Shown: piece after piece, positions 3,856-5,214 of the stretch
Layout of the letters: every line of letters starts with the position of its first letter
How positions within the stretch are numbered: position 1 is the stretch's first letter
NCBI RefSeq assembly: GCF_965641715.1
Contig: NZ_OZ282453.1
Direction: 5' to 3' (one strand)
Source of the DNA: Escherichia coli
GTDB lineage: Bacteria; Pseudomonadota; Gammaproteobacteria; Enterobacterales; Enterobacteriaceae
Length of the DNA: 64,000 bases
Notes under the pieces: model-generated
What the model was told of the DNA's origin: nothing
Databases searched by the model: none
What the model saw: only the letters and a program-made list of their open reading frames with translations
Translations under genes and position numbers: made by a program

Positions 3856-3865
3856 GGAGTTTTCC
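3856..3865. repeat. Left copy of IS186 target-site duplication (GGAGTTTTCC)
   Basis: Identical 10-mer sits immediately outside both IS ends (3856-3865 and 5205-5214). True length could be 10-12 bp because the IS end bases are ambiguous. Confidence 0.85.
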
Positions 3866-5204
3866 CATAAGCGCTAACTTAAGGGTTGAACCATCTGAAG
3901 AATGCGACGCCTCGGTGCCTCGTTAAGACGATGCCTCGCGTTCTTCAATTGCGTTTTGTAGGCTGTCAGGGATACTGTCCCACGAATGGCCACCTGTAAG
4001 CTCCAGATGACCATTTTTGTTATTCTCCACAACGAGTTAGTTCTTCTTTTCGGATCCGGCACTTCTGGGGGGGAAATCCAGCGATGGCTGGATTATGTCG
4101 TCAATTAAAAATGCGGCGAGTAGATTAGCAAATATCCACGCTTTCGCGAGTTCAGGTTCCTTTGCACGCAAAGCATCCAGGTGCAGCAAACTTTTGAGCC
4201 GCTTAAAAGCCAGTTCAATTTGCCATCGCAGACGGTAACAATCAGCCACTTGCTCTGCTGAATATTCATCTTCCGGTAATGATGTTAGCAATAGCACATG
4301 GCCCGCTGCTTCCAGCGTTTCCGCCTGAACTACTCGTCCTTTTCGACGATTCTCGCTGAGCAGTCGGGTTTTACTGATTAATGCTTTTTCGGGAGGAAGT
4401 GATACGGCAATGAGACGTGCCGGAAAGGGAGCTCCGGCTTTTTTATTACCTGAATTGCCTATCATTACAGTGGTTTCACCGTTCTTACCGCAATCCAGCC
4501 CGCGCAGAAAACCCATCATGTCAAAGCGCATTCCTTCTGCAGTTAACCAGCGCAATCCTCGCCAGTGAACCCGGACGATATAATCAGCTTCTCCAAAAGC
4601 AAGTGAGCGGATACATTCGGGACGCGAACCGAATCCCCGGTCAGCAATGCGTATCTCGTCTGCCGTTTGCGCAAATCGGTCCAGCCGTTCAGCGTCTCTG
4701 CTGTCGGTTAGCTCAAAATCAGTGAACTGACAGGTATGAGGATCATATCCCATATGTAGTCGCCATTCAGCGCTGCCGCCCCCGGGCGCACTGATTGCTG
4801 TTCCATCGACAAGACGCAATCTCTTTCCGCTTGTACAACCCGTAACTGCGGCGCGTACAGCAAGTGTTTGTGCGGCAAGTATGCCAAACCAGTCGGCGGC
4901 ATTCCGCAGCCGCTTCAGGAGAGCCACGTCAGATAATGTTGCAACGTCATGGAGCTGAGCCCATGCAGTGACTTCACGTAATGACATCCCCCCGGGGCCG
5001 TAAGCCAGCCCCAGACGTAGCAGAGTTGCAGCATCACGAATTTCGCGGCGGCGGGTTAGAGCCCCGGCATTACGTGCCGAAGTATCCAGTTCTTCGGGCT
5101 TACCAATATGGGCCAGAATTGCTGACCAGTTATCGTGAGAGTAATTCATCGGCACGTTAAATCATATCAGGCGTAATACCACAACCCTTAAGTTAGCGCT
5201 TATG
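3866..5204 (-). mobile_element. IS186 (IS4 family) insertion sequence, complete, about 1339 bp
   Basis: Perfect 23-bp terminal inverted repeats CATAAGCGCTAACTTAAGGGTTG at 3866-3888 and reverse-complemented at 5182-5204. Single transposase ORF inside. Flanked by a 10-bp direct repeat. Confidence 0.92.
4037..5155 (-). CDS. insL: IS186 transposase (InsL-type, IS4-family DDE transposase; about 370 aa from the ATG at 5147-5149)
   Basis: Translation MNYSHDNWSAILAHIGKPEELDTSARNAGALTRRREIRD... matches the IS186 transposase as I recall it. C-terminal YRLRWQIELAFKRLK resembles the IS4-family Y-R-E-K signature. Confidence 0.9.
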   Translation of the reverse strand: MPMNYSHDNWSAILAHIGKPEELDTSARNAGALTRRREIRDAATLLRLGLAYGPGGMSLREVTAWAQLHDVATLSDVALLKRLRNAADWFGILAAQTLAVRAAVTGCTSGKRLRLVDGTAISAPGGGSAEWRLHMGYDPHTCQFTDFELTDSRDAERLDRFAQTADEIRIADRGFGSRPECIRSLAFGEADYIVRVHWRGLRWLTAEGMRFDMMGFLRGLDCGKNGETTVMIGNSGNKKAGAPFPARLIAVSLPPEKALISKTRLLSENRRKGRVVQAETLEAAGHVLLLTSLPEDEYSAEQVADCYRLRWQIELAFKRLKSLLHLDALRAKEPELAKAWIFANLLAAFLIDDIIQPSLDFPPRSAGSEKKN

Positions 5205-5214
5205 GGAGTTTTCC
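5205..5214. repeat. Right copy of IS186 target-site duplication (GGAGTTTTCC)
   Basis: See left copy. The reconstructed target GGGGAGTTTTCCCC has the GC-flank / AT-core shape that I recall IS186 preferring. Confidence 0.85.

Follow-up and report, generated by a model that had tools for sequence, protein, structure and literature searches.

IS186 is described as preferring the target 5'-GGGG(N6/N7)CCCC in PMC6925257, which cites Chong 1985, SaiSree 2001 and Lee 2016, and the element is known to enter a single site in the lon promoter in either orientation (PMC3045373). The rtcBA operon is under sigma-54 control, and His309 of RtcA is the residue that is adenylylated to form the covalent AMP intermediate (PMC3854526). 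In E. coli deleted for ahpC, mazF or ybaK, RtcR-dependent induction of rtcBA calls for rtcA, and in the gor and yobF backgrounds the operon is induced without a need for it (PMC9650030 Table 1). In a Salmonella truA deletion strain, deletion of rtcA led to 4.8-fold lower activation of the operon (PMC7790460). The locus analysed here brings this element and this operon together.

The window, by which we mean the whole 64,000-nucleotide stretch of E. coli DNA that was analysed, carries a copy of IS186 (also called IS421) at 3866..5204 on the minus strand, 1339 bp in length, with its transposase antisense to rtcA. When aligned with IS186A of K-12 MG1655, the element displayed 0 mismatches over its full length of 1339 bp, in reverse orientation, and further 100% matches were found in many E. 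coli chromosomes and plasmids, K-12 included. IS186 was present in 2,220 of the 5,426 complete E. coli genomes, at a median of 3 places per carrier genome. The window copy is bounded by perfect 23-bp terminal inverted repeats, with CATAAGCGCTAACTTAAGGGTTG on the plus strand at 3866..3888, the transposase stop-codon end, and its exact reverse complement on the minus strand at 5182..5204, the transposase start end. A search for CATAAGCGCTAACTTAAGGGTTG allowing up to 3 mismatches returned these two matches only in the 64-kb window, where shuffles gave an expectation of 0.00. The first-pass annotation had described a 1339-bp element with perfect 23-bp inverted repeats and had taken it for an IS186 with an IS4-family transposase; its coordinates all held on re-reading, and the comparison with IS186A bears out the identification. 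Neither a second IS186 copy nor any other IS was found within the window, and scanning it for Rfam families and tRNAs yielded no RNA genes.

The transposase of the element is a protein of 370 aa, encoded at 4037..5149 on the minus strand from the ATG at 5149 and identical to K-12 InsL; the mechanical ORF call started it at GTG 5155 and not at this ATG. Its residues 107-348 matched Pfam DDE_Tnp_1 (E = 3.6e-26), the protein scored 133 bits against the NCBIfam IS4 family profile NF033592 (cut-off 115), and its RefSeq name is 'IS4-like element IS421 family transposase'. Read from the translation, YRLRWQIELAFKRLK represents the Y(2)R(3)E(6)K signature, which is typical of the IS4 family and defines it. 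Since its transposase ORF and its ends are intact and identical to those of the active K-12 element, the window IS186 is a canonical and apparently active copy.

On either side of the element lies a 10-bp target-site duplication, GGAGTTTTCC, which has no strand of its own and is found at 3856..3865 (left copy) and 5205..5214 (right copy), so that the flanking 10-mers reported earlier were read correctly. A repeat finder returned a 12-mer, GGGAGTTTTCCC, at 3855-3866 and 5204-5215, and 11 or 12 bp are admissible readings of the duplication as well, since the IS begins with a C and ends with a G, which continue the target bases. The length of the duplication at the rtcA site of the window is thus ambiguous between 10 and 12 bp, an ambiguity that is inherent to the element and implies no error in the original 10-bp reading. 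Removal of the IS together with one repeat gave the target GGGGAGTTTTCCCC, which, with the duplication GGAGTTTTCC, fits a GGGG(N6/N7)CCCC target with a duplication of ~10-11 bp. The motif is 14 bp long and falls on codons 215-219 of rtcA, in the rare allele (Pro218) of the window strain. Once the element had been taken out in silico, GGGG-N6-CCCC occurred in the remaining 62.6 kb at the rtcA site alone, a mean of 0.57 sites of this type being expected in shuffles of the window. Two GGGG-N7-CCCC sites are present in the window, at 34117 and 45448, and both are unoccupied.

The best explanation of the locus is that a canonical IS186 has transposed into the preferred GGGG-N6-CCCC sequence at codons 215-219 of an rtcA of the Pro218 allele, duplicating the 10 bp GGAGTTTTCC as it did so. 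The insertion splits rtcA after residue 218 and leaves a fusion of 236/237 aa that lacks His309, with cyclase activity predicted to be absent; rtcR, the sigma-54 promoter and rtcB remain intact upstream, such that RtcB can still be made, and that share of the feed-forward induction which depends on RtcA would probably be lost. We place the probability of the account as a whole, that is, of IS186 transposition into a preferred target with rtcA knocked out, at roughly 95%, and nothing in the sequence contradicts the placement of IS186 in rtcA.

The two parts of the interrupted gene lie on the plus strand. The rtcA 5' fragment (3216..3865) holds codons 1-217 plus 2 bases, in the 338-aa numbering, and is of the kind that RefSeq, in analogous cases, calls a partial rtcA pseudogene, and the 3' fragment (5215..5581) comprises the remainder of codon 218 and all that follows through the stop codon, and encodes the His309 nucleophile. 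Joining 3213-3865 to 5215-5581 gave 1020 nt in frame, encoding 339 aa if translation starts at the first ATG (3213) and 338 aa if it starts at the second (3216). ATG 3216 is the rtcA start annotated in K-12, and the in-frame ATG 3213 adds one codon to it. The proposal that excision of the IS and one repeat restores an in-frame rtcA of 338 codons is therefore upheld, with 339 codons when the first ATG is counted. The reconstructed protein scored 772 bits against NF003247 (cut-off 333, profile positions 1-338) and aligned end-to-end with the solved E. coli enzyme, PDB 1QMH (residues 1-339, E = 4.9e-212), confirming that the gene split by IS186 is rtcA. Compared with K-12 RtcA, 11 of 338 residues are changed, with no frameshift and no stop codon.

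IS186 begins after the 2nd base of rtcA codon 218 (339-aa numbering), and the reading frame that enters the element ends at a stop codon at 3924-3926. The predicted truncated product (3216..3926, plus strand) would consist of RtcA up to Pro218, in the 339-aa numbering, followed by 19 IS-encoded residues, and as judged from the reading frames the only product that could be made would be this fusion of 236/237 aa, without the C-terminal third of RtcA. His309 is present in the reconstructed protein; its codon lies beyond the break at residue 218, in the detached 3' fragment, so that the truncated product ends without this residue. Since residues 219-339 are missing, His309 among them, there are strong grounds to infer that RNA 3'-phosphate cyclase activity should be lost in the window strain. 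The rtcA of this strain should be annotated as a pseudogene.

The remainder of the operon was found to be undisturbed. The gene order rtcR / promoter / rtcB-rtcA in the window matches that of K-12. RtcR, which activates rtcBA transcription with sigma-54, is encoded by an intact gene at 201..1799 on the minus strand (532 aa); it scored 850 bits against NF038308 (cut-off 650) and carries 4 substitutions relative to K-12, with no stop codon. The pattern TGGCACN5TTGCW had a single zero-mismatch match in the window, TGGCACGACGGTTGCA, at 1934..1949 on the plus strand, which ends 37 bp before the start codon of rtcB and, going by the published sigma-54 control of the operon, would function as the -24/-12 promoter of rtcBA. 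The RNA ligase gene rtcB (1986..3212, plus strand) is intact and encodes 408 aa, a protein equal in length to its K-12 counterpart with 4 substitutions. On a draft contig of GCA_965259455.1, rtcB is recorded with Pfam RtcB and is 100% identical to that of the window. Between the convergent rtcA and malT lies a hairpin, GCCGGAT-N10-ATCCGGC (5595..5618, no strand), which is untouched by the insertion and is likely to act as a bidirectional terminator. Since rtcA is the last gene in the operon, with this hairpin and the convergent malT downstream, no polar effect on other genes is expected.

The first-pass annotation had further proposed that the insertion should abolish RtcA and leave RtcB. The second half of this is correct as far as the frame and the promoter of rtcB are concerned, both being intact, and needs qualification with regard to expression, since RtcA is conditionally required for rtcBA induction (PMC9650030, PMC7790460). 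The RtcB ligase can still be made in the window strain, which has probably lost as much of the operon's feed-forward induction as depends on RtcA. By analogy with the published conditional requirement for RtcA in RtcR-dependent induction, the insertion in rtcA may thus also reduce the induction of RtcB under some stresses. For experiments on Rtc RNA repair in the window strain, this would mean that no cyclase is to be expected and that part of the operon induction is possibly missing.

Comparison with other genomes placed the event in context. In line with the first-pass annotation, rtcA is intact in K-12 MG1655, whose reference sequence has no such 1.3-kb block, and a 600-bp empty-site query (>=80% coverage) found the rtcA site uninterrupted in 4,840 of 5,426 complete E. 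coli genomes. The window strain is not itself among the complete E. coli genomes, the closest backbone there being 99.2-99.4% identical over 23.8 kb, and the window is collinear with strain ET350 except for IS186 and a 7.6-kb yhf gene cluster. This collinearity, together with the lack of any further IS in the window, makes it unlikely that the DNA comes from Shigella. The rtcA allele of the window has CCC (Pro218) where the K-12-like allele has TCC (Ser218), and this CCC creates the perfect G4-N6-C4 motif. It is rare: the exact 36-mer of the window allele was present in 11 complete genomes, with the site uninterrupted in 11/11, and the 36-mer of the K-12-like allele (GGGGAGTTTTTCCC) was present in 3,035. 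None of the 5,426 complete E. coli genomes had the window event, in its own allele and with its own form of duplication, and the exact 236-aa truncated product was found on two other public contigs only. The draft contig of GCA_965259455.1 is 100% identical to window positions 1-3990 and ends 125 bp inside IS186, providing an independent view of the left junction. Left-junction scans with the 10-bp and 11-bp forms gave 0 matches in the GTDB species representatives and 0 in the JGI metagenome contigs, both results being uninformative on prevalence.

The site itself has been entered in other genomes. IS186 was found at the same rtcA position in 13 of 5,426 complete genomes (~0.24%), in both orientations. 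ET5 and JNEC-KY203 carry it in the same orientation as the window, in the K-12-like allele and with an 11-bp duplication, GGAGTTTTTCC, and a second junction query revealed the opposite orientation in 11 further complete genomes. The four examined among these (CRE389, 605, MS 124-1 and HH35), together with LR-33, all had an 11-bp duplication. Three opposite-orientation matches aligned over 600 bp in place of 601 bp; a different duplication was rejected as the cause, which is a 1-bp frameshift inside the transposase. An exact-protein look-up found the truncated RtcA product of the K-12 allele (220 aa, ending ...GSFSHKR) on 237 contigs, and some loci with this product carry the transposase sense to rtcA. 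Around the K-12-allele insertions of the two orientations, the flanks showed 0-2 differences in 2.9 kb. The earlier description of the insertion as strain-specific thus holds for this particular event, with its two other public contigs, and does not extend to the site, which is recurrently occupied.

The window event is independent of the K-12-allele insertions, because the allele, the duplication length and ~3-4% of the flanking bases differ, and the two orientations seen in the K-12-like allele are most simply read as two further events. Independent insertions of IS186 at the rtcA site accordingly number at least two and probably three, and the rtcA motif is a recurrent natural IS186 target, not a one-off, although its occupancy is low. 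We also considered whether the Pro218 allele might be the hotter target, and the data gave this no support, 0/11 CCCC-allele against 13/~3,050 K-12-like complete genomes being occupied; adding the window to the comparison gave a Fisher p = 0.054, a value that is biased since it was the insertion that led to the choice of the window.

Recurrence of this kind could be envisaged as the outcome of selection, with loss of rtcA being adaptive and repeatedly selected, for example through an altered Rtc stress response or tolerance of ribosome-targeting antibiotics. Inactivation does recur at the site (probably 3 events and no fewer than 2, with the K-12-allele product on 237 contigs), and Rtc is linked to antibiotic responses (PMC12606134). 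A further point in its favour comes from the ~580 of ~5,420 complete genomes that matched the empty-site query only partly, taken as deletions of the rtc locus. Two such genomes were examined; in each, a deletion fuses the 3' part of rtcR with that of rtcA and removes the promoter and rtcB, the breakpoints differing between the two. Loss of the rtc locus has thus occurred in E. coli repeatedly and by at least two routes, as might be expected of a dispensable system, and selection for loss is not required to explain it; frequent deletion is equally consistent with dispensability. Target preference alone, moreover, accounts for recurrence at one exact site, and the low occupancy in complete genomes, in the K-12-like and CCCC alleles alike, also speaks against adaptive loss. 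Adaptive loss is thus improbable in our estimation, and any effect of the insertion on fitness or on rtcB induction is putative. A more speculative proposal is that GGGGAGTTTT(C/T)CCC at rtcA codons 215-219 is a natural IS186 hot spot like that of the lon promoter and serves as a recurrent off-switch for RtcA and, by way of the RtcA-dependent feed-forward loop, for part of the Rtc RNA-repair response, with knockouts favoured under some conditions. We consider it a long shot; if it were true, knockout lineages would be favoured, e.g. under ribosome-targeting antibiotics.

Independent transposition in the window strain, which we prefer, was also weighed against descent from a single ancestral event shared with the other rtcA::IS186 genomes, whether inherited or moved by recombination. 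Such an event would account for the shared rtcA position and for the orientation, which is that of ET5 and JNEC-KY203, two strains with an IS identical or almost identical to that of the window. However, the duplication differs consistently in both copies, 10 bp (GGAGTTTTCC) in the window as against 11 bp (GGAGTTTTTCC), each duplication fits the empty site of its own allele, the flanking rtc DNA is ~3-4% different, and eleven further genomes carry the IS in the opposite orientation, an outcome in keeping with its entry into the single lon-promoter site either way (PMC3045373). A common origin is therefore very unlikely. An assembly artefact, in which the multi-copy IS186 (median 3 places per carrier genome) was misplaced in rtcA, is scarcely credible, for although short-read assemblies do break at IS186, as in the draft contig of GCA_965259455.1 that stops 125 bp into the element, two precise junctions with a perfect duplication at a consensus target would not result from a misjoin, the identical left junction is present on that independent draft contig, and the analogous insertion is found with both junctions in 13 complete genomes.

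Transposition of IS186 into its preferred target in rtcA is an ordinary event, in which a known element has entered a non-essential gene in the manner already described for it, and it brings with it no new kind of element or mechanism. Analogous rtcA pseudogenes have already been annotated by RefSeq in other strains, and in the literature searched no paper was found that deals with IS186 together with rtcA. The only addition, a modest one, is the 14-bp rtcA motif as a recurrent natural target of IS186. It offers a natural example of strict target choice by this element, in which a motif in a coding gene has received independent insertions across lineages and in both orientations, and it is one more indication that E. 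coli can dispense with the rtc locus and frequently loses it.

In comparison with known copies of the element, the IS186A, IS186B and IS186C of K-12 MG1655 differ from the window copy in location alone, there being no rtcA copy in K-12. IS186A shares its sequence, its perfect 23-bp inverted repeats and its 370-aa InsL with the window copy, and its target, GGGGATCACTCCCC, with the duplication GGATCACTCC, has the same GGGG-N6-CCCC / GG-N6-CC geometry as the rtcA insertion. The loci annotated by RefSeq in ET5, JNEC-KY203, MS 124-1, LR-33, HH35 and CRE389, as partial rtcA with an IS421 family transposase, involve the same gene, codon position and element as the window. In contrast to the window, with its Pro218 allele and 10-bp duplication, they have the K-12-like allele (Ser218, TTTTTCCC) and an 11-bp duplication, and they enter the IS in another frame, such that their product ends in ...GSFSHKR where that of the window continues as ...GSFPISANL.... 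The lon-promoter site resembles the rtcA site in being a single preferred G4-N6/7-C4 target that is entered repeatedly and in either orientation (SaiSree 2001, as cited in PMC6925257 and PMC3045373), and at both sites insertion inactivates the adjacent function. The rtcA site differs in its low natural occupancy, at ~0.24% of complete genomes, and in its position, which is within a gene's coding region and not in a promoter.

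In the strain analysed here, codon 218 of rtcA (window 3864-3866 and 5215), the codon in which IS186 cuts the gene, was found to be CCC (Pro218) as opposed to TCC (Ser218) in K-12, and this CCC gives rise to a perfect GGGG-N6-CCCC target. The Pro218 allele is rare, the exact 36-mer across codon 218 being present in 11 of 5,426 complete genomes, while the K-12-like form of the same 36-mer was found in 3,035 of the 5,426. Two GGGG-N7-CCCC sites, at window 34117 and 45448, match the published IS186 target pattern and are free of IS186 in the strain. The reconstructed RtcA (3216-3865 joined to 5215-5581) differs from that of K-12 at 11 of 338 residues (3.3%), with four differences in 408 residues for RtcB and four in 532 for RtcR. 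The RtcA differences may stem from relaxed constraint on its gene, or from the allele merely being older.

At the same rtcA position (window 3854-3867, with the IS removed; loci L001, L002, L011, L013 (strain LR-33) and L016-L019), IS186 was present in 13 complete genomes of E. coli out of 5,426. These 13 genomes belong to another lineage than that of the window, and carry a K-12-like rtcA allele together with an 11-bp duplication, GGAGTTTTTCC. The element lies in the orientation seen in the window in two of them and is reversed in the other 11. The truncated rtcA product of these genomes (220 aa, ending in GSFSHKR) was on record for 237 public contigs.

The left junction of the window's own insertion was recovered in a 452-kb draft contig (L008; GCA_965259455.1, contig CBDGWI010000003.1). 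This contig matches window 1-3990 at 100% identity and ends 125 bp inside IS186, the kind of break that short-read assembly typically leaves where an IS is repeated. This draft contig probably originates from the window's strain or a close sibling. A record of the window's truncated rtcA product was also found for a 5.16-Mb contig.

Within IS186, window 4419-4448 holds a hairpin resembling a terminator, with GCCGGAAAGGGAGCTCCGGC and then TTTTTTATTA, on the + strand, which is antisense to the transposase and would be the strand entered by rtcBA transcripts. This predicted hairpin could act as a stop for read-through transcription within the element; the count of terminator-like sites in its region was not above that in shuffled sequences.

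The rtcA empty-site query was for the most part missing from around 580 complete genomes of E. coli out of 5,420. Inspection of two of these (L009, NZ_AP022064.1, and L010, NZ_CP128931.1) showed in each a deletion that fuses the 3' portions of rtcR and rtcA, with loss of the promoter and rtcB, the breakpoints of the fusion differing between the two. The rtc locus has been lost repeatedly across E. coli.

In the annotation of the comparison strain ET350, yhgE (L006 28243-29967) is a pseudogene that contains a stop codon, and the window has an uninterrupted ORF of 574 aa at the equivalent position (28889-30613). A 7.6-kb block containing six large ORFs lies between trpS and frlR (window 48695-56301). 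It is missing from ET350, which is otherwise collinear with the window, and appears to be a presence/absence polymorphism. The position and gene sizes of the block are consistent with the yhfS-yhfZ/php cluster of K-12.
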